Shown in pieces: positions 3,521 through 39,586 of a stretch of DNA of 64,000 nt. The translations under genes and the position numbers were made by a program. The stretch spans positions 1,924,001 through 1,988,000 of the forward strand of contig CM075994.1 of the NCBI GenBank assembly GCA_038087875.1, in the 5' to 3' direction. The notes beneath the pieces were generated by a model, which had not been told where the DNA came from, did not search any database, and saw only the letters and a program-made list of their open reading frames with translations. Source of the stretch: Malacoraja senta. Lineage: Eukaryota. Each line of letters starts with the position of its first letter. Position 1 is the first letter of the stretch.

Positions 3521-4657
3521 ATAATAACCTCCTCACACATTTCCCCTGCAAGTATTTCTGTCACTCCTTTAAAATATGCCCCTTCTTTGAACAAGCTCTT
3601 AAACATCGCATCTGAATCAGTTTCCATCTGATTACACCCCTTGAGGATGTTCATCTATGTGTTGAATTAATAAAACAACGAGATTGGGGACATTTCTATT
3701 CAACCTGTCAAAGGAATTGGGGGAGGGGATTAGAAAGTCAATGAGGTAATCAAACGTAATAGTTGAGTGGCAAATGACAATAGTGCTACCTTCCCAATAT
3801 TTAACTGAAGGAAATAATGGGTTATCGGGGCTGTATGTTGTGACAGACAGCCTGACACCTTGCATGTCATTTTAATATTACACTTATCCCATCCCCCTGG
3901 ATATTCCGGATAAATAAATTAAGGTTTTGCCAACTATTACAAATCAGGCTAATTACAAATCAATAACATTAGCCAACTTTGAAACACGAAGCGCTGAGCA
4001 TTGGGATCCGGACATCATGGACAAATGGCCTCAGTTCCCCGCTCACATCTGGCAGTGCTCTCCGTCTGAACATCTCTCCCCTGCCGCTCGCCGGCCTCGC
4101 TCCATATCAGCCGCTTCCCGCAAATCCTTAAATTCAGACTGCTGCCGGGAGCAGGACATAGCCTCACTTGCTGCGCTGGGAGACACTGTATGGCATTCAC
4201 TGCCCGTGTCTTTCAATGTAAATTTGCATGGGGACATGCTTTGGAGGTGTGTGACGGTTGTCGGTCAAGTGAGAATAAGAGAGAATAAGAATGCTGCTGT
4301 CTTGTCAAGACGCGCACACAAGCAGTTGGTATTAGTATTGAACTTCTTGTTGATCACAGAATTTCTCACAACAGAGCGTGAGAGTGCGAGAATTGGGCGA
4401 AATGCGTGAATCTCACGCTCAATGTAGCGATGTTACAAAACCTACCTTCAGCGGCGCTGCAGATCTGCCAGTGGCTGTGTGTGTGACTCCGGCGCCTTTG
4501 AGGGGGGGGGGGGGTTTGTATCGCTTGTTGGAGAGGGATTTCCTCGGGCTGCTAGTCGATGAAGAAAAATCGATCGGACGTCCGTTCCAGTTTATTTTTT
4601 AAATCGCTGGACAATTTAATCGTTGGATTAAAGTAAAAAGCCCTCAATGCCTTCAAC

Positions 4658-4857
4658 NNNNNNNNNNNNNNNNNNNNNNNNNNNNNNNNNNNNNNNNNNN
4701 NNNNNNNNNNNNNNNNNNNNNNNNNNNNNNNNNNNNNNNNNNNNNNNNNNNNNNNNNNNNNNNNNNNNNNNNNNNNNNNNNNNNNNNNNNNNNNNNNNNN
4801 NNNNNNNNNNNNNNNNNNNNNNNNNNNNNNNNNNNNNNNNNNNNNNNNNNNNNNNNN
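4658..4857. other. Assembly gap (200 N)
   Basis: N run. Confidence 1.
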
Positions 4858-7338
4858 AGACGGGGTTTATCCCTAAGAGATACTCATCTAACAATATGAG
4901 ACGTCTACTCAACATAATGCATTCACACAAATCTGAAGATCAAGAATTATCAATTATTTCGCTGGATGCTGAAAAAGCATTTGATCAAGTAGAATGGAAT
5001 TATATGGACAAAGTATTACAAAAATTTCAACTGGGGGAGAATTTTATTCTATGGATCAAGTTACTATATAACAAACCTACAGCTAGAATACTAACTAATA
5101 ACATATTATCCTCGAAATTCCAACTATCAAGGGGAAATAGACAAGGATGCTCATTATCACCACAACTGTTTGCTCTCATTATTGAACCGCTAGCAGAAAA
5201 AATTAGAATACATCCTGATATCCATGGATATACTAAAGATTCATATAATAAAATATCTTTATACGCGGACGATATATTACTGTACATTACAAAACCTCAA
5301 ATCACTATACCAAATATATTAAATTTAATTGAAGATTTTGGATCTTTTTCTGGATATAGAATAAATTGGAATAAAAGTGAAATTATGTCAATAAAACCGA
5401 AAGATTCATCACATCTTTTAAAATTCCCTTTTAAAATAGCTACAGAAAAATTTAAATATTTGGGAATCGAAATTACCAGATCATATCAAGGTATGTTTAG
5501 GGCAAATTTTGACCCCTTACTTAATAAATTAAATACACTAATTAAATTTTGGAAAACGCTCCCGATGTCTTTAATAGGCCGAATAAACGCAATAAAAATT
5601 ATCTTTTTACCACAAATGTTATACCTATTTCAATCAATTCCTATATACTTACCAAAGAAGTTTTTTAAAAAACTCGACTCAGATATCACTAATTTTATAT
5701 GGGACTATAAATCACATAGAATACAAAAAACTCATCTGAATAAACCTAAAGTATTAGGGGGTTTATCACTACCTAATTTTATGTATTATTATTGGTCAGT
5801 AAATATTAAAAATATGATTCAACTGATGGATAACTCCGCCCAACAAGCGGACTGGATTGTAATGGAGAAAGAGGATTGCTCCTCTAGAAACATTGGAGCG
5901 ATCCTCCTCTCTCCAATGAAATTGAATAACATAAATTATAATAAGAACCCAATTATCCATAGTACAAAACAATCTGAATTTGGAAACAAATAAAACAAAA
6001 TTTAAAATTAAGAAATTTATCACTTTTATTACCTATAGTCAATAACCCTTTGTTTAATCCTTCTATTATAGATAAAGCTTATACACAATGGGATAGATTA
6101 GGAATTAAAACGCTTGGTGACTTGTATGAAACTGGAAAATTACTTTCATTTCAACAATTACAAATAAAATATAAACTCGGAAATAATCAATATTTTAAAT
6201 ATTTTCAAATATGCGACTATTTGAAAAAATATACAAAAGATCATCATAATAACCCAGCAGATGTACTGGACGAGGCAATGCAGATAAAAGCGGAATCAGC
6301 AAACTTAATATCATATTTGTATAATATTATCTTAAATGCACAAATACCACCTACGGAGGGTATCAGAAGAGACTGGGAACAAGAGTTAGCTATTAAAATT
6401 TCAAAGGAAAGTTGGAATGAATACTTATTAAATGTGCATAAATGCTCGATTAATGTAAGACACACTTTAATACAATTTAAAATTTTACATAGATTATATT
6501 AAACTAATAATTCTATGTAGTAAATTTTCCCAAATGTATCATCTATTTGTGATAAATGTCAATCCCAAGAAGCTACTATAACGCACTCATTCGTTTCTTG
6601 TACAAAAATTCAAAAATTTTGGAATGAAATTTTTGAAATCTTTACAAAGTTATTTAAAACAAGACTGATACCCAAAGCAGAATGGATTATCTTCGGTATA
6701 ACGGAAGATGGTCCAGAATTAAATGTGTTTCAAAAGAAACTAATGGACTATGGGTTAATAACTGGAAAAAAGCTAATTCTAAAATTTTGGAAGAAGGCTC
6801 CAATACCAACTATAAATATGTGGATTTCAAATATGTTTGAAACATTACACCTAGAAGAGATAAGAATCCTCCTAGCAGGTAAACCAGATCATTTCCACCT
6901 GACGTGGTCTGTATTTATAGAATTATTACAAACATAAGGTGCAAAAGTACTTTAAAAAAAAAAAAAAAAAATTGAGGTCAGGTAAGGGGGGATGATAGTT
7001 GAAGAGTTGGTATGTCCATTTTGCGTAATGCTCATAAAAATATTTGTTTCTCTCTTTTTCCTCTTTCTTTTTTTTCTAGGGTCTATTTCTTAACTCTTTT
7101 TCTTTTGTTTTTAATTTTGCTCTTATAGGGTCTTTGTCCTTTTTTGTTGTCACATTTCCTACACTTCCACTTTTTCCTTCACTTTCTTCTTTCTTTCAAT
7201 CTTTTCCTTTTCTAGTGTAAAAAATAAATGGAGTACATTAATTGTAAGAAGATATAAATGACAAGTACTAATGTATGTGGTTGTAATGTAATGTACTTCT
7301 AATAAAATACAAATTAAAAAAAAAAAATTAAAAAAAAA
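4858..7338 (+). mobile_element. L1-clade LINE: ORF2 (RT and C-terminal Cys region), 3'UTR and poly(A); 5' part lost in the gap
   Basis: LDAEKAFD, RGNRQGCSLSP, YADD, CDKC...HSFVSC; AATAAA then A-tail; frameshift near 5965 and disruption near 6500. Confidence 0.93.
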
Positions 7339-9449: not shown

Positions 9450-9780
9450 GGGCCTGTCCCACTTAGGCGATTTTTCAGCGGACTGCCGGCGACTGTCAAG
9501 TTGCCAGCAGTCGCCTGAAAAAACGGCAACTGGAACGGTGATTGTCAGAGTGGAACACACAAACACATTGCTTCCTTCACCAGCCCGTGTGAATTTTTTA
9601 GACAGCGGTCCCCCCGCTTGCCCTGTCTAAAAAATTCACACTGTGCAAAGCCAAGGTGATACAGACACATGCCGCGATGAACAGGGAGGTTGGCGCTGTA
9701 ATTAAGACGGCTAAAGCACAGTGTACAGTAAGTCCTTTAAAAGAGGGGGGGGGGAGAGGGGGGGGGGGGTGGGAGAAGAA
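9450..9780 (+). mobile_element. Left half of a PIF/Harbinger-like MITE, abutting an L1
   Basis: Begins GGGCCTGTCCCACTTAGGCGA, similar to the TIR at 19101. Shares internal CACAGTGTAC.GTAAGTCCTTTA and a G-run with that element. Confidence 0.55.
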
Positions 9781-11410
9781 ATCACATAGAATACAAAAAA
9801 CTCATCTGAATAAACCTAAAGTATTAGGGGGTTTAGCACTACCTAATTTTATGTATTATTATTGGTCAGTAAATATTAAAAATATGATTCAACTGATGGA
9901 TAACTCCGCCCAACAAGCGGACTGGATTGTAATGGAGAAAGAGGATTGCTCCTCTAGAAACATTGGAGCGATCCTCCTCTCTCCAATGAAATTGAATAAC
10001 ATAAATTATAATAAGAACCCAATTATCCATAGTACAATCCGAATTTGGAAACAAATAAAACAAAATTTAAAATTAAGAAATTTATCACTTTTATTACCTA
10101 TAGTCAATAACCCTTTGTTTAATCCTTCTATTATAGATAAAGCTTATACACAATGGGATAGATTAGGAATTAAAATGCTTGGTGACTTGTATGAAACTGG
10201 AAAATTACTTTCATTTCAACAATTACAAATAAAATATAAACTCGGAAATAATCAATATTTTAAATATTTTCAAATATGCGACTATTTGAAAAAATATACA
10301 AAAGATCATCATAATAACCCAGCAGATGTACTGGACGAGGCAATGCAGATAAAAGCGGAATCAGCAAACTTAATATCATATTTGTATAATACTATCTTAA
10401 ATGCACAAATACCATCTACGGAGGGTATCAGAAGAGACTGGGAACAAGAGTTAGCTATTAAAATTTCAAAGGAAAGTTGGAATGAATACTTATTAAATGT
10501 GCATAAATGCTCGATTAATGTAAGACACACTTTAATACAATTTAAAATTTTACATAGATTATATTATTCGAAAACTAAAATTCATAAAATTTTCCCAAAT
10601 GTATCATCTATTTGTGATAAATGTCAATCCCAAGAAGCTACTATAACGCACTCATTCGTTTCTTGTACAAAAATTCAAAAATTTTGGAATGAAATTTTTG
10701 AAATCTTTACAAAGTTATTTAAAACAAGACTGATACCCAAAGCAGAATGGATTATCTTCGGTATAACGGAAGATGGTCCAGAATTAAATGTGTTTCAAAA
10801 GAAACTAATGGACTATGGGTTAATAACTGGAAAAAAGCGAATTCTAAAATTTTGGAAGAAGGCTCCAATACCAACTATAAATATGTGGATTTCAAATATG
10901 TTTGAAACATTACACCTAGAAGAGATAAGACTCCTCCTAGCAGGTAAACCAGATCATTTCCACCTGACGTGGTCTGTATTTATAGAATTATTACAAACAT
11001 AAGGTGCAAAAGTACTTTAAAAAAAATAAAAAAAAAATTGAGGTCTGGTAAGGGGGGATGATAGTTGAAGAGTTGGTATGTCCATTTTGCGTAATGCTCA
11101 TAAAAATATTTGTTTCTCTCTTTTTCCTCTTTCTCTCTTTTTTTCCTAGGGTCTATTTCTTAACTCTTTTTCTTTTGTTTTTAATTTTGCTCTTATAGGG
11201 TCTTTGTCCTTTTTTGTTGTCACATTTCCTACACTTCCACTTTTTCCTTCACTTTCTTCTTTCTTTCAATCTTTTCCTTTTCTAGTGTAAAAAATAAATG
11301 GAGTACATTAATTGTAAGAAGATATAAATGACAAGTACTAATGTATGTGGTTGTAATGTAATGTACTTCTAATAAAATACAAATTTAAAAAAAAATAAAA
11401 AAAAATAAAA
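9781..11410 (+). mobile_element. 5'-truncated L1-clade LINE, near-identical to 5711-7338
   Basis: Uninterrupted ORF2 C-terminus to 11002, same 3'UTR and poly(A). Confidence 0.93.
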
Positions 11411-14400
11411 AGGAATTGGAAGTGGGCTAGGGTTGGGTGAAAGCTAGAAGAGTCTCGACCTGAAACGTCACGTATTCCTTTTGTCGAGAGATACTGCCTG
11501 ACCTGCTGAGTTTCTCCAGCTTTTTGTATCTATCTTGATTGAAAACAACCCTGCCCTCATCAGCAGAGCTACTGTAAAGAAGGTTGACAGTTTTAAGTTC
11601 CTCGGCATCCATATCGCAGGCAACTTAACCTTGTACTTTCATACTGATGCAGTGAAGTAGGCTTGATGGGCCGAATGGCCTAATTCTCCTATCACTTTAT
11701 GAAAGCACATCAGTTTACAGTTTAAGATCTGAGAAGATTCGGTATGTCAGTGAGGATTCTCTCAACTCTACAGATACATTATACAAAGTATTCTGACTGT
11801 ATACATCGCAGCCTGGTATGGCAACTGCTCTGCTTATGACGACCTGAAACAGCAGAGAGTGAATATAACCCAGTCCATCGCAGGCTCGTCATTTCTTTCC
11901 ATCCAGTCAATCTTCACTGTGTCTTCATCAGGAAGGCTGGAAGTATAATCAAGGATACCTGTCCCCCTGGTGATTCCCTTTTACTATTATACCTTTTGGA
12001 AGAAGGAGCTTGCAAAGCTGCACGCCCAGATTTAAGAACAGCTTTGGTTTTAGAGATACAGCGTGGAAACAGGCCCTTTAGCCCACCGAGTCCCCGCCTA
12101 CCAACAATCACCCCATATACTAGTTTTATTCTACAAACTAGGGACAATTTACAGATACCAATTAACCTACAAACCTGTTCGTCTTTGCAGTGTGGGACGA
12201 AACCAGAGCACCTAGCCACGCGGTCACCGGGAGAACGTACAAACTCTGTACAGACAGCACCCATTGTCTAGATCGAACCCGGGTCTTTGTCTCTGTAAGG
12301 CAGCAGCTCTACCACTGTGCCACTCACAGCTTCTTCCTCACTGTTATCAGACTCCTGAACCAATCACCTTTTTCTCACCCCCTTTCTGGAGGTTCTGCCA
12401 TGCACTCTCACTATTAACTCTACCTCATTCAGTCATTGTTAGAATTTTCTTCAGATTGCTCTACAACCTTTGTACCATCCTGCTGTTTTGCATTTGTATT
12501 TATTGCTTTAACTATCATTGCCATGTATACTGTTTACTCTCTTACATCATCATGCGAACAAGGAATTTTATTGCACCCTGGTGTATATAAGAAACTAATC
12601 TGAGTCTAAATTTTCAGAAATGAAATTGCCTGCTGCCACAGTAATTTCCAAATAACATTCCTCTGGATGTGTGGGTGGGTTGCTATATATATAGGAATAT
12701 ATCATACTCATTATATAAAATTCAAAGATCCCACATTCTCCATTTGGCACTGTGTAGTTCAGGGAAATGTCGTAGAAGCTTATTGAATTTATCAAGAGTG
12801 GTGGCATACTTAACCAATCAGTAACCAAGGTTACGCTGCAAGAGGCAGAATTACTTTTAGTGCAGAAGTACAACCAAAGTAAAACACTGAATTTGTTGCC
12901 TAGTAACACTGTCTTGTCTCGTTGTCAGCAAACTCATTAGAAATTTGTTCTGCACCCTCCCACTTTTGTCAAAGAGACAATTTGTTGTTGGCCTACAGAC
13001 TTCACTCCATAAATGTTTGCCTTCCACATCCCAAATGTTTGCAGTGCAGCTGCCCTCTCTGAAGAAGGCCCTCTTCAGACAGTGTGATGTGTAGATTCAG
13101 TCAAGGGTGGGAAAACTGGTCTGTGTGAAAGAGTGGGTTATATCCACAACTCTGCAATTTCTTGCAGAGGGAAAGCCAAGCATCAGGGCTAGAAATACAA
13201 TTCAGTTCCCACTGATACTCCTGGCACTTATAATAGTCACAAAGATTTTAATGAGACTGGAAGACTTGAGTTATAAGCAGAGACTGGATTGGCTGGGATC
13301 TTTCTCTGGAGTGCAGGAAGTAGAATGGTGACATTATAGAAGTTTATAAAATTATTAGGCCAAAGATGAGCCACGTTACTATAAAACTTGCAATGAACCA
13401 AGTTATTATGAATCTGTAAAGCGTAGGAGCAGGCCCTTCAACCCATAATATATGCAACAAACATGATGCCAAGTTAAACTGATCTTCTCTACCAACACGT
13501 GATCCATTTCCTCCATTCCTTGCATGTCCATGCGCCATCATAGTAAATGCCACTATTGTTTCTGTCTTAGTTTATTTTATTGTCATGTGTGCTGAGGAAG
13601 TGAAATGCTTTTATTGCATAAAGAATATACATGATTACAATCGAGCCATCCACAGTGCCTCCACCACTGCCCCTAGCAGCACGTTCCACTCTTGTCAAAA
13701 ACATGTCCCGCACATAATTTTTAATTTTGCTCCTCTCACATAAAGGAGTCCCCTCTGGTCTTTGACATTTCCATCCAGCAGAAAATGTTCTGACTGTCTA
13801 CCTCATCTATGCCACACATCATTTTAAATACTTCTATCATGTCTCCCCTCAGCCTCTTGACACTCGAGAGAAAACAATCCAAGTTTATCTAACCTCCTCT
13901 TATAGTTAATACCCTCTAATCCAGACAGCATTCTGGTAACCTACGTGATAAGAAACCAGAGCACCTGGAGAAAACCCACACGGTCACAGGGTGAACGTGC
14001 AAACTCCACACAGCTCTGGAAGTGCAGGCAGGTTCAGCCCAAGCAGGCATTCTATGTGGCCAAAGCAACAAACAACCATTATGACACATCATAAATGGGT
14101 GTTCCGTTAAGCAGCATCACCAATTAACCCATTAAATGGTCCCAATCAACAATAGCCCGCAGAAACCAGTTGCCAGCTGACTAAATTATTCATCACTTCA
14201 GAAATAAATTGGCAGATTCATCCCAACCGAACCCTCAGGTTAGTTTGCTGTAATCTTTCCCTCCAGCTGAATGATGTAGGTATGGAACTCAGAACTGAGG
14301 TAAATCACTCTACCAGGATTCTTTTCATATGAATAATAAGGAATTAATTTTGTCTGCCAGGACCTACAAAGTAACCTCTTTCCTTGTCCAAGTGTATATT

Positions 14401-14458
14401 TGCTTTAAAATGAAAGATGCACAGGAAAATCTATGGGAGTTGCTGGACAACCCACTAT

Positions 14459-15668
14459 AGGGGGGTTGCACGTAAGGCCACCGGGTCAAAGGGCTTGACG
14501 CACGGAGCCGCTCAATCCATCTGGAGGACATCGCAGCTTCCGGTATATGTTGTTAATACACGAAACTCGTACTTTCCTACCTGTTATAAAACGCCAAATT
14601 GGTGAATTTTTGCACTGTAAATAATTGTGGAAGTCGGGGAAGTCAGAATTCCAAAAGTGAAGAGAAATGAAGGTAAAGAGAAGCGAGAGCTGAAGGGACA
14701 ACAACAGCTAAAGTGCTTGGCGAACATTGGCCGTGCAGATATCAAATTGGAAAATATTGGGAATTATCGCGTTTGCTCGCGGCATTTCATCAACAGTAAG
14801 GCATTATGTATGTTTTTTCTTTATTCATTTGGTATCTAAAAAGTTTCAGAAATGATAAATCTGGCTATAAAATTTTAAAATCGCCCATGGTTCTGAAGTG
14901 GGTTTTTACATGCTTCTGAAGCTAAATTTATCATAAAAAAAATCTCCAGACTTACGAGTGGTGTGTGGAAAAGTAAGTTTTCTATCGTTATGCTATTGAG
15001 GTGTATATTTTGGCAAATAATAAAATGTTCTGACAGCTTAAACACCCACTCCCTTTCAATAGGATATTGTCAATTTGCTGAGGTTGATTATGTCCAATTA
15101 ACAGCTAAAAATTATGCAATTCCTTGGCTTGCACCTGAGTAAAATGTAATTCAAAACCCACGTATGGTTTGCGATTTTTTATAATGATAAATTTTGCTTC
15201 AGAGGCGTTTTCTTTTTGTATGTAAAAACCCACTTGAGAACCATGGGCGATTTTAAAATTTTACAGCCAGATTTACCACTTCTGAACTTTTTAGATGCCA
15301 AAGGAATCAAGAAAAAACACAAATAATGCCTTACTGTTGATGAAATCCAGTGAGCAAACGCGATAATTCCCTATATTTTAAATCTCGATATCTGCACCAC
15401 CAATGTTCGCCAAGCACTCTGGCTGTTGTTGTCTCTTCAGCTCTCGCTTCTATCTACTGTCATTTCTCCTCACCTTTGGAATTCTGAAGTAGGATAAATG
15501 TCTCTCACGCTTATCCCGATTTCCTTAATTATTTACAGCGCAAATATTGACCATTTCGGCGGGTTTGAACAGGCCCGCTACGCTGGAAACAATGGTCAGT
15601 GTTTCCCTGCAGTTCATCGCGTGTACTCCAGTTGGCGTAGCGTAGCAACAGTACGGGTCAACCTCCCT
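14459..15668. mobile_element. Foldback non-autonomous DNA transposon with THAP-coding arms (ISL2EU/Harbinger-like)
   Basis: Termini AT|AGGGGGGTTG ... CAACCTCCCT|AT. Long inverted arms at ~14640-14940 and ~15175-15490. The left arm encodes RIPK...NYRVCSRHF. Confidence 0.75.
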
Positions 15669-16539
15669 ATTAATGTGCTTTTGTAGAAACAAGGAACTGC
15701 AGATGCAGGTTTTCCAAGGAAAAAACACAAAATGCTGGAGTAACTCGGGTCAGGCAGCATCTGTGGAGAACAAGGATTGGTGACATTTCGGATGGGGACT
15801 CCAGTATGAAGGGTCCTGACCCAAAACAACCTAATCACCTATTCATGTTCTCACAGAATCCATTAACGTGCTGTTATTGGTTAAATCGCTTAAGTAGTGA
15901 TTTGCACAGATTGAATGCTGATCCTCGTATTTTATGAATCTCTCATCAATGTTTAACTCTTCATTGTAAAACACGGTCATTATGAAACATATAGAACAGG
16001 CCTACAGCCCTCAATGTTTGTGCTGAACATGAGTCCAAGTAAAATTATGTGATCCATATCCCTCCATCCCATGTGCCTATCTAAAAACTCTTAAACGCCA
16101 CAATTGTACCACCCTTGGCAGCACATTCGAGGCACGCACCACTCTGTGTACATAAACATGCCCTGCACATCGCCATTAAGTTTTGCCCCTCTCACCTTAA
16201 AGCTATGCCCGCTCGTCTTTGACATTTCCACCCCGGGGAAAAGGTTCTGACTGTCTACCCAATCTATGCCCCTGATAATTGTATACACCTGTACCACGTC
16301 TCCCCTCGGCCTATGACCGCCAAAGGAAACTATTTAAATTCGTGCAACCTCCCTGAGACCGAAACTTCACTGCCGGAATCCTACAAGAAGAAGAAGAAGA
16401 GACCGAAACCTTCTAATCCAGGCTTCCATTTCTGATAAACCTCCTCTGCACCCTTTCCAAAACCTCCACATCCTTCCTGCCTAATAAAAGTCTTATGACG
16501 TTGCAACGTGACTTGTTGACCCTTGGACATTTATCACCC

Positions 16540-16930
16540 TCCTCGTCCTTGTCTTCTGTTGCGCGGTGCTCCTCCGTGGAGACGCTTAGGCCGGGTAAAT
16601 GAAGGCCGGATGCATCATTCGTGATGGGAACCAATAGTGGGACGTGAGTGTGGCAGGGGCCCGGAGCGGGACCGGGGGACGGGAGAGAGCGACGCACACA
16701 TCGCACGGCAGCTTGGGAAGCGCTTGGAGCCGGAGAGCGGCGGCGGTGGTAGCTGGTAGCGGCGGTGGTAGCGGCGGCGGTAGCGGCGGTAGCGGCAGCG
16801 GCAGCGGCAGCGGCAGTCGGGGACTCGCCCGCCGGGCCATGGCGGACTACGGGGTTCCCAGATAGTCGGCGGATCCCTGTCCCCCGCTCCCCGGACACGG
16901 CAGCGCTATCCGCCGCATCACCTCCAGGTC
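16540..16930 (+). promoter_or_regulatory. DOP1A: CpG island; probable DOP1A promoter and non-coding first exon
   Basis: GC/CpG-rich stretch that does not resemble the repeats in the window. CCAAT at 16631, GACGTG nearby, (GGC/AGC) triplet run at ~16737-16816, weak possible donor CAG|GTCACT after 16927. The first coding exon has a splice acceptor upstream of its ATG, so an upstream exon is required. Confidence 0.65.
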
Positions 16931-18160
16931 ACTGCCGCTGGATGAGCATCAGGATACCGGGGTGTAAACGATCACCACGTACCCGCCTTCTGGATAAACT
17001 ACAGGGCACCCGTCCGTTGAATTCCTTGGTGCAAGTTGCCATTGGGTACCCGCTTTGTGGATTAATTACAGGCACCTGTTCATTGCATTAATTACAAGGT
17101 ATCTGTGTACAAGTTATCACCAGCTACCGTCATCTGGATTAACTACAGGGCACTTGCCCATTGCAATAACTACAAGATACCTGGGTGCAAACTGTCACCA
17201 CATACCGTCGTCTAGATTAAGTACGGGGCACCTGTCCATTCCATTAACTGCAGGGTACCAGTGTACACGTTATCATCAGTGACCATCTTCTGGATTAACC
17301 ATAGAGTATCATTGGATGAACTACCAGAATAACCCTGTACAAATTATCACCAGGCTCCATCCACTGGATGAACTACGAGATAACTGCATACAAAATATCA
17401 CCATATACTGGCTACTGCATTAATCATAGGTTACCTGTGATAAGATTATCGACTTGCAATGAGGCTTGAGGTGATAGCAGGCAACATCAGGGTAGTGGCA
17501 GGTAAGTGCTGACTGGTGTCAGAGGCACCCCTCCAGTCTAATGTTCACCATGACAATGTTTCACTACGTAGTTCAATGATACATTGTCATATGTACTGAT
17601 GTACAGTGAAATTCTCTTTTTGCATATTGTTCACCATATACTGTGTACTGGATTAACCACAGATTAACTGTGGTAGATTATCAACTGGTATCATCCACTA
17701 GATTAACTATAGGGTACCTGTGTACAAGATTATTACCAGGTATAATTTATTGGGTGAACTACAGATCACCTGTGTAGGAGATTATCACCAGGTACTGATA
17801 ACTGAATCCATTGATAACTGCTAATCACCAGGTTATCAATGGATTAACCACAGGATACCTGCCTATAAGATTATCACAGGAAACATCAAATGGATTAACA
17901 ATAGGATATTTGTCCTTGAGATTTTCTCCAGGTATTATTCATTGGATTACTACTAGGTAATGAATTACTGTCAATTACCTGTCCATCAGGTTATCTACAG
18001 GATTCCTGTCGATTGGTTTATCATCAGGTCGTTCACTGAATTATTGCAGGGTGCTGCGCACTGAATTATCACCATGTACTATCCACTGGATTAGTTCTGG
18101 ATTGTTACATCCACTACATTACAACTGGTTCGCTGTGAACTGGTTTATTGCCGGGTCGTT
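16930..18160. repeat. Degenerate ~50-bp minisatellite (approximate consensus GGATTAACTACAGGGTACCTGTGTACAAGATTATCACCAGGTACCATCCACT)
   Basis: Recurring GGATTAAC/TTATCACC motifs at roughly 50-nt spacing, decaying toward the 3' end. Confidence 0.75.
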
Positions 18161-19836: not shown

Positions 19837-20039
19837 TGAATCTTCTCTGCACCGTTTCCAGTTTGACAACATATTTCCTATAACATGGTGCCCAAAATTG
19901 AACCCAATACTCTAAATGCAGCCTCACCAACGTCTTATATAACTGCAACATGACCCCCAACTTCTATACACAATACTCTGACGAAGGCCAATGTGCCAAA
20001 AACCTTTGACCACCTTATCTACCTTTGGTGCCACTTTCA

Positions 20040-22264
20040 CTATGTCATAAAGTACTGGAGAGAATACTGTTGACAAAGCTAGAAATGTATGTCCTTACTA
20101 CTGACAATCAGTTTGGGTTCAAAAGAAAACATGGAACTGACCTGTGTATCTATGCTCTTAAAGAGATTGTGTTCAGGTACACAAGCCTGAATTCATCTGT
20201 ATTTTTATGTTTTATTGATGCGTCCAAGGCATTTGATAGAATTAATCATGAACAATTGTTTGTAAAATTGCTAGATAGAGGTGCCCCTAAATTCTTAGTG
20301 AGAATTTTAGTGTTTTGGTATGCCCATCAAACGTTTCAGGTTAAATGGGACAATGTTGTATATGCTCCATTCTGTGTTAGTAACGGAGTGCGGCAAGGAG
20401 GAATTTTGTCTCCTATTTTATTTAATGTTTATAGGGATGAATTGTCAAATCAGTTAAATAGGTTAAAAACTGGCTGTCTTGTCTTGTTAATCATCTTATG
20501 TATGCAGATGACCTGGTCCTGCTCTGTCCATATAGTGTTGGGCTGCAGCAGATACTGAAGGTGTGCTCTCAGTATGGCCTTGATTATGACATAAAGTATA
20601 ATGCTAAGAAAAGCCGCATAATGATAGTTAGAAGCGCTGAGGACAGGAAATCAACTTTTCCGACTTTTTATTTGTTAGACAGTCCTCTTGCTGTGTGTGA
20701 GGAAATTAAATACCTAGGTCATGTCATATCCGATGACTGGACGGATGACAAAGACCTCTACCGACAGCGCTGTCAAATGTATCTTCAAGCTAACATGCTT
20801 ATAAGGAAGTTTTCTATGTGCTCTGACTCTGTGAAGTGTTCACTGTTCAGAACCTACATCACACCATTATATACTGCTCAATTGTGGTCTAATTATAAGA
20901 AAAAGAGTATGCAGAGGCTCAAGGTAGCATACAATGATGCAATGAGGTTGCTACTTCGTGTCCCTAGATGGCATAGTGCCAGTCAATTGTTTGTGTCCAC
21001 TAGAGTGCCAACCTGTGAGGCACTCTTAAGACAGCTAATGTTTAGTTTTATGTGTCGCCTGGATAAGTCAGAGAACCACATAATTGAAGCCCTAGTCAGC
21101 CCTCTGAAAAGCTGCTATAGATTCACTTCTAGGCTAAGACGGCATTGGTGCAATAGCTTGTATATCTTATAGGCTAATATGCAATTTTATATGTATTTTT
21201 TAGAGATTAGAGATTAGAGATTCCTTTATTTGTCATTCAGACCTTTCGGTCTGAACGAAATTTCGTTGCCTGCAGTCATACATATAATAATAAATGACAA
21301 AACACACAATAAACACAAATTAACATCCACCACAGTGAGTTCACCAGGCACCTCCTCACTGTGATGGAGGCAAAAGTCTTAAAGTCTCTGTCTCTTCCTG
21401 CTTTCTTCTCCCTCTGCGCTGAGGCGATCCAGGCTTCTGATGCTGTGGCCCCGCCGGGCGACGGTAAGCCAGTCCAGCGGCCGAATCCGTGCTCCGCGAC
21501 GGGCCGGTTCAAACTCCGCGGCCCGGGGTGGTCGAAGCTGCCGAAGCTGCCGCCCTCCAGTCTAGCGGACGCAGCTGTAGTTCACCAACCTGTGACCTGC
21601 GCGCTCCCGACGATGTCGTCCACTGGGCCCGCGGTCGAGCCTCCGGATTCAGGTCGCCACCAGTGTCCTCGGTCGCCACCGCCGGACGCCACCGCAGCCC
21701 CGAAGCCGGCCAGCCTCGCGCTCCCGAAGATGTCGTCCACTGGGCCAGCTGCGGCCGAGCCTCCGGATTCAGGTCGCCACCAGTGTCCTCGGTCGCCACC
21801 GCCGGAACGCCACCGCAGCCCCGAAGTTGGCCAGCCCCGCGCTGGTAAGTCCTGGCTCTGCCTCCGGAGCCTCGAGGTCGGTCGGTCGCTCGCAGTTGGA
21901 GTTGGAGGCCGGCAGCTCGCAGTTGGAGTTGGAGGCCGGCAGCTCCGCCATTTTGGCCTCAGCGCAGACGGAGGCAGAGAAGGGGGACACGACAAGAAAA
22001 AGTCGCATTCCCCCGAAGGAAGAGACAAAAGTCATGTTTCACCCCCCCACCCCCCCACCCCACACATACACAACCCAATAAACTAAAATTTAACTGAAAC
22101 AGGACAAAAGAAAACAACAACAAAAGTAAAAACAGACGGACTGCAGGCGAGCCGCTGCTGTACGACAGCGCCGTACAGCAGCAGGTATCTCATTATACTG
22201 TTTGATGTGTTCTATGGACCTGTGTCTGAAATAAAGCTTTTATTATTATTATTATTATTATTAT
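20040..22264 (+). mobile_element. 5'-truncated non-LTR retrotransposon, RTE-X-like RT, (TTA)n tail
   Basis: QFGFKRKHGT, IDASKAFDRINH, VSNGVRQGGILSP, YADD; AATAAA then (TTA)n at ~22239-22264; short TTTCA duplication at the flanks. The clade assignment is from motif memory. Confidence 0.75.
21200..22185 (-). mobile_element. GC-rich non-autonomous retroelement inserted in the 3'UTR of the RTE-X-like LINE
   Basis: Minus-strand AATAAA then (TAATCTC)n tail at 21200-21230; internal ~120-bp and ~24-bp tandem duplications. Confidence 0.55.
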
Positions 22265-28175: not shown

Positions 28176-29214
28176 TTTTTTAATTTTTTTTTTAAAATGT
28201 TTTTATTTTATTAGAAGTGCAATTGTATACAATCATATTTTCATAATACATTTTATGTACAGCTTCTTATTTTTTTATTATAGTAAAGAGGAAAAAGAAA
28301 TTAGATAATAAAGTATAGAAAAACGTGAGATATATAGTGTGTGGAGAAGAAGAATAGAGAATGAAAGAAGAAAGTTAAAGAGTAGAAAATAGGAAAAAGA
28401 GAGTAAAAGAAAAAAGGAAGAAAAAGAAAAAAGAAGGAAGGAGATCTTATTTATAATCTTGAACATCCCTCGCCCAGTCACGAGACAGTTAGCTTTTACA
28501 ATTGTGTTGCACCATATGATTCCAAAAAGACGACAAATGGAGACCAACTCGTTATGAATTGGTCAGATTTATCTATTAGGAGGAATCGCATTTCCTCAAG
28601 ATGTGCGGTGTCCAACATACTTGCAATCCACATTTTGAGCGTTGGTATTGGTGTATTTTTCCAAAATTTAAGTATTAATTTTTTTGCTATTATTAAACCA
28701 TAATTAAAAAATAATTTTTGAGATGGATTCAATTTATTCCCATCTTCCATTACCCCAAATATAATCAATTCATTATTAGGTTCCATTTTAATCTTAATTT
28801 TGTAAATATTTTGAAAATATCACTCCAGAATCTATAACGTTTTATGCAGGAAACAAAAGAGTGTGTTATAGTTGCGTTTTGGGTTAAACAATTATCGCAA
28901 GTGGGGGATATATTTGGATAGAATTTATTTAATCTTGATTTTGAATAATATAATCTATGTAAAATTTTAAATTGAATTAGATTATGTCTTGCATTAATCG
29001 AACATTTGTGAATGTACATCAAATACTTTTCCCATGTAACCTTCGTAATTTTTATCATTAATTCCCGTTCCCACTCTTCTCTAAGTACCTCTGTCGCTGG
29101 TAGGTCTATATTTAAAATACTATTATATAAATATGATATTAATTTTTGTGCATCAGCTTTAATATTCATTGCTTCTTCCAATAAATCAGGAGTTATTTTT
29201 TGATATCCTTGTAT
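28176..29214 (-). mobile_element. 5'-truncated L1 with 17-bp TSD
   Basis: GTTGAGTTTAATAATCT at 28159-28175 and 29215-29231; T-tract tail; ORF2 C-terminus QFKILHRLYY. Confidence 0.9.
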
Positions 29215-30508
29215 GTTGAGTTTAATAATCTGATGGCTGTGGGGAAGTGGCTATTCCTGAACCTGGTTGTTGCAGATTTTAGGCTCTTGTACCTTCTACC
29301 TGAAGGCAGCTAAGAGATGAATGTGTGGCCAGGATAGTGTGGGTCCTTGATGATGCTGCAAGCCTTTTTGAGGCAGCGATAGTGGTAGATCCCCTCGATG
29401 GTAGGGAGGTCAGAGCCGATGATGGACTGGGAAGTGTTTACAACTTTTTGCAGTCTTTTCCGCTCCTGGGCGCACAAGTTGCCGAACCAAGCCACGATGC
29501 AACCGGTCAGCGCGCTTTCTACTATGCACCTGTAGAAGTTCGAGAGAGTCCTCCTCGACATACCGACTCTCCGTATTCTTCTCAGGAAGTAGAGGCGCTG
29601 ATGTACTTTCTTTATGATTGCATCAGTGTTCAGGGACCAGGAGAGATCTTCGGAAATATGCACGCCCAGGAATTTGAAGCTCTTGACCCTTTCCACCATC
29701 GACCCGTTGATATAAATGGGACTGTGGGTCGCCATCCTACCCCTTCCAAAGTCCACAATCAGTTCCTTGGTTTTGCTGGTGTTGAGTGCCAGGTTATTGT
29801 GCTGGCATCATTTGGTCAGTCGGTCGATCTCACTTCTATACTCTGACTCGTCTCCATCAGTGATACGTCCCACAACAGTGATGATGGAGTTTGCCCTATG
29901 ACCGGCTACACAGTCATGAGTATAGAGTTAGTACAGCAGGGGGCTGAGCACGCAGCCTTGAGATGCTCCCATGCTGATTGTTATCGAGGCTGACACATTT
30001 CCACCAATGCGAACAGACTGTGGTCTGTGAATGAGGAAGTCGAGGATCCAATTACAGAGGGATGCGCAGAGACCCAGATCTGAGAGCTTGGTAACCAGCT
30101 TGGAGGGGATGATTGTATTAAATGCCGAGCTGTAGTCAATGAATAACAGCCTGACATATGAGTTTTTGTTGTCCAAGTGGTCCAGAGCGGAGTGGAGAGC
30201 CAGCGTTTAAGAATTTAACAGTTTAAGAATAAGGGGTAGGCCATTTAGGATTGAGATGAGGAAAAATGTTTTCACCCAGAGAGTTGTGAATCTGTGGAAT
30301 TCTCTGCCACAGAAGGCAGTTGAGGCCAATTCACTGGATGTTTTCAAGAGAGAGTTAGATTTAGCTCTTGGGGCTAAAGGAATCAATTGATATGGGGAAA
30401 AAGTAGGAATGGGGTACTGATTTTAGATGATCAGCCATGATCATATTGAATGGCGAAGCTGGCTCGAAGGGCCAAATGGCCTACTCCTGCACCTATTTTT
30501 CTATGTTT

Positions 30509-37469: not shown

Positions 37470-39586
37470 CAGTGCCCTCCATAATGTTTGGGACAAAGAC
37501 CCGTCATTTATTTATTTGCCTCTGTACTCCACAATTTGAGATTTGTAATAGTAAAAATCACATGTGGTTAAAGTGCACATTGTCACATTTTAATAAAGGC
37601 TATTTTTATACATTTTGGTTTCACTATGTATAAATTACAGCAGTGTTTATGCATAGTTCCCCCCATTTTCAGGGCACCCATAATGTTTGGGACACAGCAA
37701 TGTCATGTAAATTAAAGTAGTCATGTTTAGTATTTTGTTGCATATCCTTTGCATGCAATGACTGCTTGAAGTCTATGATTCATGGACATCACCAGTCGCT
37801 GGGTGTCTTCTCTGGTGATGCTCTGCCAGGCCTGTATTGCAGCCATCTTTAGCTTATGCTTGTTTTGGGGGCTAGTCCCCTTCAGTTTTCTCTTCAGCTT
37901 ATAAAAGGCGATTGACTTGGCTACTCAAGAATTGACCATTTTTAAGCTTTGAAAAACTCCTTTGTTGCTTTAACAGTATGTTTGGGATCATTGTTTTGCT
38001 GTAGAATGAACCGGCAGCCAATGAGTTTTGAGGCATTTGTTTGAACTTGAGCAGATATGATGTGTCTATACGTATCTAATTATGAATTCCAAACAGTTGA
38101 TGTTGGTAAGCCTAATGTTTGGCTGATGTCTCTAACAGATTTATTCTTGTTTCTCAGTCTCAATAGACAATAGGTGCACGAGTAGGCCATTCGGCCCTTC
38201 GATGTGATCATGGCTGATCTTCCACAATCAGTACCCCGTTCCTGCCTTCTCCCCATATCCCCTGACTCCGCTATCTTTAAGAGCCCTATCAAGCTTCTCT
38301 TTAAAGCATACAGAGAACCGGCCTCCACCGCCCTCTGAGGCAGGGAAATCCACAGACTCACAACTCTCTTTGTGAAAAAGTGTTTCCTCATCTCCAATCT
38401 AAATACCTGACCCCTTATTCTTAAACTGTGGCCCCTGGTTCTGGACTCCCCCAACATCAGGAACATGTTTCCTGCCTCTAACGTGTCCAAACCCTTAATA
38501 ATCTTATATGTTTCAATAAGATACCCACTCATCCTTCTAAATTCCAGAGTATACAAGCCCAGCCGCTCCATTCTCTCAGCATATGTCAGTCCCACCATCG
38601 CGGGAATTAACCTTGTGAACCTACGCTGCATTCCCTCAACAGCAAGAATGTCCTTCCTCAAATTTGGGGACCAAAACTGCACACAATACTCCAGGTGTGG
38701 TCTCACTAGGGCCCTGTACAACTGCAGAAGGACCTCTTTGCTCCTATACTCAAATCCTCTTGTTATGAAGGTCAGCATGCCATTCACTTTCTTCACTGCC
38801 TGCTGTATCTGCATGCTTACTTTCATTGACTGATGAACAAGGATGCCCAGATCCCGTTGTACTTCCCAATTCTCCCAATTCTGCTAGCCCTTGCTGTCCC
38901 CTCCCCTTCATCAGCCATCTGGTTGTCTCCTCCCCTCCCCCAGCCCTCGGGCTCCTCCTCCGCCTTTTTCCTTTTTTCCTTTCTTCTCCCCACCCCCTAT
39001 CAGTCTGAAGAAGGGTTTTGGCCCGAAACGTTACCTATTTCCTTCGCTCCATAGATGCTGCTGCACCCGCTGAGTTTCTCCAGCATTTTTGTGTACCTCC
39101 CGTTGTACTTCCCCTTTTCCCAATTTGACACCATTTAGATAATAATCTGCCATTTAATCTGCCATTGACACCATTTAGATAATAATGGCTTCTTTGACTT
39201 TCATTGGCACAACTTGGGTCCTCGTGTTGATAAACAGTAATAAAAGTTTCCAATGGTGATGGAAAGACTGGCGGAAAGACTAGGTGCTGAGAGCTCTCTT
39301 ATACCTGCATTAAGGAGGCAATTAAACACACCTGAGCAATTACAAACACCTGTGAAGCCATGTGTCCCATACATTATGGTGCCCTGAAATGGGGGGACTA
39401 TGTATAAACACAGCTGTAATTTCTACATGGTGAAACCAAAATGTATAAAAATGGCCTTTTAAAAAATCTGACAATGTGCACTTTAACCACATGTGATTTT
39501 TATTCTATTCCAAATCTCAAATTGTGGAGTACAGAGGCAAATAAATAAATGATGGGTCTTTCTCCCAAATATTATGGAGGGCACTG
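37470..39586 (-). mobile_element. Tc1-like (IR/DR type) transposon, internally deleted, with nested CR1 and Penelope repeat
   Basis: TA|CAGTGCCCTCCATAAT ... ATTATGGAGGGCACTG|TA; ~230-bp TIRs with the repeated motif CATAATGTTTGGGACA; HTH remnant LRNKNKSVRDISQTLGLPTSTVW. Confidence 0.9.
38165..39190 (-). mobile_element. CR1 LINE 3' fragment inside Tc1
   Basis: LYRALVRPHLEYCVQFWSP, RTRGH motifs. Confidence 0.9.

Follow-up and report, generated by a model that had tools for sequence, protein, structure and literature searches.

A probable non-autonomous ISL2EU-type element with a doubled, inverted transposase 5′ end in the skate Malacoraja senta

The 64-kb stretch of the Malacoraja senta genome analysed here (the window) contains a 1.2-kb repeat in which a piece of THAP-coding sequence occurs twice, in inverted orientation. 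A preliminary description, made from the sequence alone, took this repeat for a Foldback transposon left by internal deletion of an ISL2EU element that had a THAP exon at each end. This raises the question of what kind of element it is and how one transposase exon came to stand in it twice. According to our analysis, the element is real, and it is probably an abundant, non-autonomous one of the ISL2EU type, with an unusual doubled 5′ end of the transposase gene. To judge from its letters, the copy in the window is itself a dead, neutrally decaying repeat.

Layout of the element and state of its THAP exons

The element extends from 14459 (or 14460) to 15668 (or 15667), and its parts are collected in Table 1. 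The inverted arms align over 14580-14944 and 15573-15173 (blastn E-value = 2e−102, 79% identity with gaps). They share 319 of 364 aligned sites (88%), and the ungapped blocks of 203, 73, 59 and 31 nt are 88%, 92%, 80% and 87% identical, respectively. The diverged inverted arms reported before are thus present, but they are longer than the ~300 bp then given, measuring 365 and 401 nt, of which about 150 nt in each case is intron. Nor do they lie at the ends of the element, as had been assumed. Beyond the 16-bp terminal inverted repeat (TIR), the outer ~100 nt of the two sides are globally no more alike than shuffled sequences (546 of 1000 shuffles reach the score), and their best local patch, 12/14 nt, is reached by 45 of 1000 shuffles. 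Since the outer ends are no closer than shuffles, the long repeat is internal rather than terminal. In addition, tandem subrepeats are absent from 14457-15670 (0 of 6 TRF rows at score 30). The Foldback label does not fit such a layout: the element shares with Foldback elements (FB, Galileo) a single strand predicted to form a stem, whereas long terminal repeats and tandem subrepeats are missing here. The proposed capacity to form a long hairpin is borne out, in that the + strand is predicted to fold as one long stem of −607.6 kcal/mol, a value that has no shuffle control at such length.

AT dinucleotides do flank both ends (14457-58 and 15669-70), as noted earlier, but theirs is not the sole reading, because AT with AGGG termini and TA with GGG termini fit the flanks equally. 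Under the AT reading, the flank context is TATT, with the duplicated AT in second and third place, and the terminus is AG; under the TA reading, the terminus is GG. ISL2EU elements are described as having TIRs of 6-259 bp that usually start with GG, and as duplicating the central AT of AATT (PMC4482050). The length of the 16-bp TIR falls within this range. However, an AT duplication requires an AG terminus here, so that the element cannot combine an AT duplication with a GG start, and its 5′ flanking base is T where the ISL2EU context has A. Further TIR copies in the window are not above chance (16 matches at two mismatches, 10.8 expected), blastn reveals no second copy of the element elsewhere in the 64 kb, and Rfam yields no matches. 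The observed-to-expected CpG ratio is 0.88 in the element (14460-15667), 0.28 in the left flank and 0.49 in the window. The element is thus CpG-rich despite ~12% divergence from other copies and may escape germline methylation near the neighbouring CpG island.

Table 1. Coordinates of the element, its parts and the adjacent CpG island (positions in the window)
Feature	Position	Strand	Remarks
Left candidate target-site duplication, AT	14457..14458	+	read as TA (14458-14459) with an element start at G14460; from sequence
Left TIR, imperfect	14459..14474	+	14/16 matches, one gap, against the right TIR
Left outer end	14475..14579	+	~105 nt, high copy; likeness to the right outer end is a 14-nt motif (12/14)
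Left arm, internal inverted repeat	14580..14944	+	365 nt; blastn, block alignment
Left THAP exon-1 relic	14599..14795	+	TTG for ATG, 23-nt frameshift deletion near 14640, Trp-to-Cys; tblastn, Pfam (E-value 0.005-0.006), alignment
Phase-1 donor GTAAG and 5′ part of transposase intron	14796..14944	+	136/148 identical to the right arm
Spacer, AT-rich	14945..15172		228 nt; repeated in the genome, depth 3e4-2.5e5; without transposase exon 2 (tblastn)
Right arm, internal inverted repeat	15173..15573	-	401 nt; blastn, block alignment
Right THAP exon-1 relic	15335..15554	-	retains ATG; three stops in frame; Trp-to-Cys and His-to-Asp; donor 15334
Right outer end	15574..15651	-	~78 nt, high copy; two paralogous contigs link it to a THAP arm
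Right TIR	15652..15668	-	imperfect match to the left TIR
Right candidate target-site duplication, AT	15669..15670	+	or TA at 15668-15669; from sequence
CpG island; possibly the promoter or a non-coding first exon of DOP1	16451..17100		0.8-0.9 kb from the element; candidate link

Each arm consists of exon 1 of a transposase gene followed by ~150 nt of the next intron. With tblastn, the arms fall on the first 73-75 residues of proteins P0004 and P0005 (68-81% identity, E-values = 4e−25 and 2e−21; 2e−21 for the left arm against P0004). The right arm, when read through its stops, matches the same two among three candidate proteins (70% identity and E-value = 6e−22 for P0004). P0004, from Leucoraja erinacea, combines THAP, HTH_Tnp_4 and DDE_Tnp_4 domains, and both it and P0006 pass the Pfam cut-offs for all three. 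The arms therefore correspond to the N-terminus of skate proteins having the domain set of ISL2EU ORF1 (PMC4482050), which agrees with the THAP identity and the ISL2EU-type parent proposed in the preliminary description. Later transposase exons, exon 2 included, have no tblastn match in the spacer or the window, and the element holds no HTH, DDE or YqaJ sequence, the last having been looked for in the element ORFs scanned. The Pfam THAP profile (PF05485), put forward earlier as a check, does match the arms taken alone, with 17.7-18.4 bits and E-values of 0.004-0.006. These scores stay below the curated cut-off of 23.9 bits because exon 1 spans only profile positions 1-58 of 87 and signature residues have been lost in each arm. 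The arms are THAP relics and no longer working domains.

The THAP peptide quoted in the preliminary description is encoded by the left arm at 14642-14794, with the donor-like GTAAG starting at 14796. The right arm is degraded, as stated there: it keeps the ATG at 15554 but has three stops, one of them at the second Cys, and the zinc-binding His is changed to Asp. The left arm is not intact either, TTG replacing its ATG and a 23-nt deletion shifting the frame. One change is common to both arms. The position of Trp47, which is Trp in 32 of 33 homolog rows (several of them near-duplicates), is Cys in each. This Trp is described as an invariant THAP residue required for DNA binding (PMC4168063), and Cys in both arms at such a position suggests that a single exon, broken before it was copied, is their likely source. 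Between the arms, the intron parts match each other no worse than the exon parts do (136/148 versus 181/214 identical sites, Fisher p = 0.05). Within 14642-14794, 133 of 153 exon sites are identical, and 15 of the 19 codons changed from arm to arm are non-synonymous or stops. Taken together, the share of non-synonymous changes and the likeness of the introns are what one would expect if a single broken exon had been copied and both versions had then changed neutrally, and not of selection on two genes. CpG transitions make up 6 of the 45 arm differences.

In L001, a metagenome contig that encodes a close relative, the acceptor of exon 2 lies at the corresponding phase-1 position and so lends support to the two donors (14796 and 15334). 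No protein is encoded by the element. A THAP-DOP1 fusion protein was considered, the left arm being oriented toward the DOP1 gene, and rejected, because this arm has no in-frame ATG before the donor.

Related transposases and abundance of the family

Skates have at least two subfamilies of the transposase, of P0004 type and of P0006 type. P0006 and P0164 of Leucoraja are 99.7% identical over the DDE part and lie on different long contigs; both have an intact DDE triad, which implies that a source of trans-acting transposase existed. The pair is suggestive of a recently active ISL2EU-type family in the little skate. P0004 and P0160 (Leucoraja and Amblyraja) are open models with 92% identity in which Lys replaces the catalytic Glu, and possibly represent an orthologous copy that was domesticated or is decaying slowly. 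Two further proteins have unusual architectures. P0005, the Rhinoraja longicauda model cdk2ap1, joins ~215 residues of THAP and linker to a CDK2AP C-terminus, through either host-gene exon capture or an annotation artefact, and P0021 (1963 aa) is made of six tandem units with a THAP domain of the same subfamily as the arms.

In a quick tree of 27 transposases, which covers database relatives without Repbase references, the four skate rows grouped with L001, a crinoid protein and one further protein with an SH-aLRT of 100, and the two teleost rows fell elsewhere. L001 (1840 nt) was the one locus obtained from 66 candidates in a metagenome scan, and it has neither termini nor DNA likeness to the element. 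Its transposase (L001:1-1840) is 80% identical to the DDE part of P0006, above any named invertebrate or teleost row, and is a lead for horizontal transfer. A pattern scan of GTDB genomes gave no matches, and a protein scan of viral contigs none among 22 candidates. A single 18-nt pattern match in viral contigs (L002) is put down to chance; L002:1-3666 looks like the genome of a small RNA virus, one ORF resembling an RdRp and another a capsid gene.

The abundance of the element was assessed from its depth in public contigs of four runs from three organisms; three of the runs are deep, and one, guessed to be RNA, was judged to be probably DNA. In all 12 bins from 14488 to 15651, summed depth was 1.9e4-1.1e6, compared with 18-57 in the left flank (three organisms), and it jumped from ~20-50 to above 10^4 within the bin containing the left TIR. 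Summed depth is not copy number, and single positions vary more than tenfold; on this rough scale, parts of the element stand at ~600 to 20,000 times flank depth, with the ends at 2,600-14,000 times and the spacer at 1,200-4,700 times. The ratio of left to right end depth was 1.07-1.62, and the arm depth sum was 2.4-3.3 times that of one end.

Of the contig pieces, 32 are listed, beside 144,211 others, and long pieces favour diverged copies. Among the 32, 20 are paralogous on the element and differ from the window copy by 7.7-19.9% (median 11.8%), a median equal to the difference between the two arms (45/364, 12%). The right-arm letter prevails among the other copies at 14587, 14822 and 14852, so that some of the difference between the arms belongs to the window copy alone. 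All four internal junctions are crossed by listed paralogous pieces. At least four pieces with at least 31 letters on each side cross from the spacer into the right arm, at least three pieces of one run cross from the left end into the arm, and at least two of one run from the right arm into the end. The junction of left arm and spacer is crossed by at least two pieces, whose short sides of 30 and 22 letters are under the 31-letter bar. No contig spanning the whole element is found among the pieces listed. Subfamily joints were also seen: an exon deletion of ~39-42 nt is present in all three organisms, another joint skips 271 nt of the right arm, and a joint of 14866-15191 in run X1 could mark either a spacer-less doubled copy or a one-arm deletion. 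Broken exons, a preserved TIR and high copy number are features that the element has in common with MITEs, and 1.2 kb is long for a MITE.

An orthologous contig of organism B, with 11 differences in 384, enters the left terminus by 25 letters, and the insertion therefore predates that split. In run X11, the organism D orthologue departs from the window sequence at 14454 and has 77 further letters; the point of departure is four letters short of a clean empty site and may mark an empty site, an imprecise excision or another insertion.

Origin of the doubled exon

With somewhat better than even confidence, we regard the element as a member of a non-autonomous, high-copy family of ISL2EU type in skates. 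Before this family multiplied, a THAP exon that was already dead would have been copied, inverted, into the opposite end. Under this scenario, an autonomous ISL2EU-type element would have lost its interior, and the remaining exon 1 would then, if the order is right, have acquired the Trp-to-Cys change that both arms now carry. Break repair or gene conversion templated on one end would have written a ~370-nt inverted copy inside the other end and, by analogy with Galileo, would have left the outer ~100 nt different. An intact transposase, presumably acting in trans, could have recognised the short TIRs and multiplied the doubled form. The window copy would finally have decayed neutrally, each arm separately. 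Of all this, the shared damage, the high copy number and the decay are observed directly. The homology of the arms to skate transposases, the shared Trp-to-Cys change, the likeness of the introns, the depth of all parts, the paralogues crossing the junctions, the match between arm difference and paralogue difference, the intact triad of P0006 and P0164 and the precedent of Galileo all count for this scenario. Against it stand the lack of a spanning contig, the support for the left arm-spacer junction that stays under the 31-letter bar, and a CpG content that is hardly depleted, which is odd for an old methylated copy. Moreover, repair of the Galileo type starts in the TIR and would homogenise the outer ends, which differ here. 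The only likely present activity, as modelled, is structural, namely, a long hairpin that would form if a transcript crossed the element.

The plain internal deletion proposed at the outset would need a parent with a THAP exon at each end, for example one in which a THAP-led nuclease gene faces the transposase gene. We consider such a parent highly improbable. Depth data agree with it in that, in other copies, a THAP arm follows the left as well as the right type of outer end, the two types being about equally deep, and in that the arm depth sum exceeds that of one end. The known gene content of ISL2EU does not. The second ORF of the autonomous element encodes a YqaJ exonuclease, and PMC4482050, as far as its available text goes, ascribes the THAP domain among PHIS groups to ISL2EU alone, and there to ORF1 alone; the available portion of its Supplement 3 has no ISL2EU entry, and ISL2EU is also defined in PMC4122938. 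Likewise, YqaJ was found on 0 of 26 related THAP proteins, 22 of which carry DDE_Tnp_4, and on 0 of the 4 closest, in non-exhaustive searches limited by shared words and length, and the Atlas clusters with THAP but no DDE include no YqaJ cluster. No purifying selection is visible between the arms. Finally, the change at the invariant Trp is common to both, and an inactivating change shared in this way requires an inverted duplication, so that plain deletion is not supported as the source of the doubled exon.

A possible but less probable origin, to which we give roughly one chance in four, is that the element unites two left ends. Transposase-side ends of two sister ISL2EU subfamilies would have been joined tail to tail, by aberrant or en-bloc transposition; the inner ~300 nt would later have been converted, with the 23-nt deletion near 14640 marking the edge of the converted tract, and the hybrid would have spread. 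Several details fit this origin. The start-codon position lies ~140 nt from the terminus on one side and ~114 nt on the other. The arm block outside the 23-nt deletion is less alike than that inside, the first 61 arm sites matching at 48/61 versus 269/301 for the remainder (p = 0.03), which two different left ends explain better than copying from one end does. As noted above, skates have at least two transposase subfamilies, and the left N-terminus is slightly better matched by P0006 than by P0004 (29.6 versus 25.0 bits), but this preference concerns 17-19 residues. The two halves of the spacer are weakly alignable when one is inverted (24 of 1000 shuffles reach the global score, 774 of 1000 the local one). 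Precedents are offered by AgaP2-P12MITE, a hybrid, and by Mu killer, which has two copies of one end, as far as these have been described. On the other hand, the outer ends show no overall homology, and the ISL2EU transposase would have to accept two left ends, a hypothetical property.

Could the doubling instead be an accident of this locus, with two one-armed fragments fused here and at the orthologous sites and the doubled form never transposed? The absence of a whole second copy, both among the pieces listed and elsewhere in the window, would suit such an event, as would the fact that the left arm-spacer junction has the weakest support of the four. We nevertheless hold it to be very improbable. 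The 2-nt flanks at the two termini match, the left and right ends are equally abundant, and two contigs of organism B cross the left arm-spacer junction collinearly. These contigs differ from the window copy by 7.7% and 8.6%, whereas the flank orthologue differs by 2.9%.

Known systems and the neighbourhood of the element

Copying of a dead exon into the other end, the scenario that we favour, can be compared with several known systems. In its ancestry, the element resembles ISL2EU (IS4EU; PHIS superfamily) as described in PMC4482050 and PMC4122938: its arms go back to a THAP+HTH_Tnp_4+DDE_Tnp_4 transposase, the TIR is short, the flank duplication is 2 nt long and AT-rich, and the host is an animal. 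It differs in having no HTH, DDE or YqaJ sequence, in the doubled transposase 5′ end, and in its flank and terminus. The host group also lies outside those reported in the papers cited here. In a 2022 survey, elephant shark, gar and coelacanth gave no ISL2EU; its authors proposed a gain at the base of teleosts and called for more cartilaginous fishes (PMC9179366, as far as available). The element places ISL2EU-type elements, probably abundant ones, in cartilaginous fishes.

The closest structural parallel is Galileo of Drosophila willistoni (PMC4168063) and D. mojavensis (PMC3573991), another lineage with a THAP transposase, in which ORF sequence lies inverted at both ends. As described there, such non-autonomous forms multiplied (22 copies, E subfamily), and repair or conversion between the ends was proposed as the cause. 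Galileo falls within the P superfamily, its TIRs are at least 600 bp long, and the 3′ end of the recruited ORF is contiguous with the TIR. In our element, by contrast, the THAP exon at the 5′ end was recruited, and it is set apart from the 16-bp TIR by ~100 nt that differ between the two sides. Recruitment of more than 500 bp of transposase ORF into the two TIRs was described in 2014 as "a unique trait of Galileo" (PMC4168063). If our scenario is right, the skate family would represent an independent, Galileo-like recruitment of an ORF, this time in a vertebrate and a different superfamily, with a copy number that is far higher. The interest for transposon specialists would lie in this second lineage and in the presence of ISL2EU in cartilaginous fishes.

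AgaP2-P12MITE of Anopheles gambiae is likewise non-autonomous, stems from a THAP-transposase lineage and has ends that may come from different P subfamilies. Unlike our element, it is described as joining a 5′ and a 3′ end around an unrelated interior, without a doubled coding exon (PMC1562414). Mu killer (PMC3440606) and the Ac-silencing composite insertions of maize (bioRxiv 10.1101/2020.01.07.897926) are reported to share with it a transposase 5′ portion that is doubled in inverted orientation between ends, and the potential for a fold-back RNA against the parent transposase. These are single young loci with demonstrated silencing, whereas the element belongs to an apparently large, old family with 12% mismatch that is known from DNA alone; in addition, both ends of Mu killer are TIRA, and the outer ends of the element differ. 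On a reading by analogy, a doubled "killer" cassette formed from two transposase-side ends would exist in thousands of copies in skates, and hairpins read from promoter-side copies such as the present one would give rise to small RNAs against intact ISL2EU transposases. It would amount to a self-multiplied, Mu killer-like brake in a vertebrate. We give this reading little credence, and for Mu killer itself the model of long-hairpin read-through is disputed (PMC3440606, as far as available).

Inverted repeats of 370 nt in their thousands could give rise to double-stranded RNA and to rearrangements in skate genomes. Among the matches listed, there was no publication on this element family or on ISL2EU in skates or cartilaginous fishes, and repeat libraries may already list the family.

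As to its surroundings, the element had been placed ~0.9 kb from the CpG island of DOP1A. The distance holds, at 0.8-0.9 kb, and the link to the gene is plausible. On the + strand, there are four Dopey_N coding exons (41625, ~46466, 50100 and 52060), with three further CpG-rich stretches between them and the island, and the island at ~16450-17100 is plausibly the promoter of this DOP1 gene. The gene is probably DOP1A rather than DOP1B. The DOP1 exon had no match among PDB sequences, and the Atlas names Dopey_N alone. In a search for a head-to-head gene on the minus strand, like UBE3D in human, no match above the cut-off was obtained with 104 of 107 minus-strand ORFs (at least 42 aa, up to 17100) and 11 plus-strand ORFs; the scan left out three low-complexity minus-strand ORFs and 129 of the 137 plus-strand ORFs between 15600 and 41600.

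Several other repeats were noticed in the window. Inside the island, a GC-rich short tandem repeat of GGTAGC/GGCAGC units (16736-16816) is followed at ~16840 by an ATG-initiated ORF of eight codons, a possible 5′ UTR with a uORF. Directly behind the island, 17058-17299 is a tandem array with a 78-nt period (3.1 copies scored), and similar units seem to reach at least 17400. Very high-copy SINE/LINE-like repeats with summed depth up to 1.7e6 lie between the element and the island (15690-15845 and 16137-16500), and 16198-16312 is 78% like 13741-13855. Nearly identical fragments of LINE reverse transcriptase with long open frames on the + strand occupy 4632-6934 and 9602-10999, and other LINE pieces lie at 20010-21169, 28499-29250, 29313-29807 and 38083-38883. 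A GC- and CpG-rich segment at 21313-22094 contains a direct duplication, and each of its strands has open frames.
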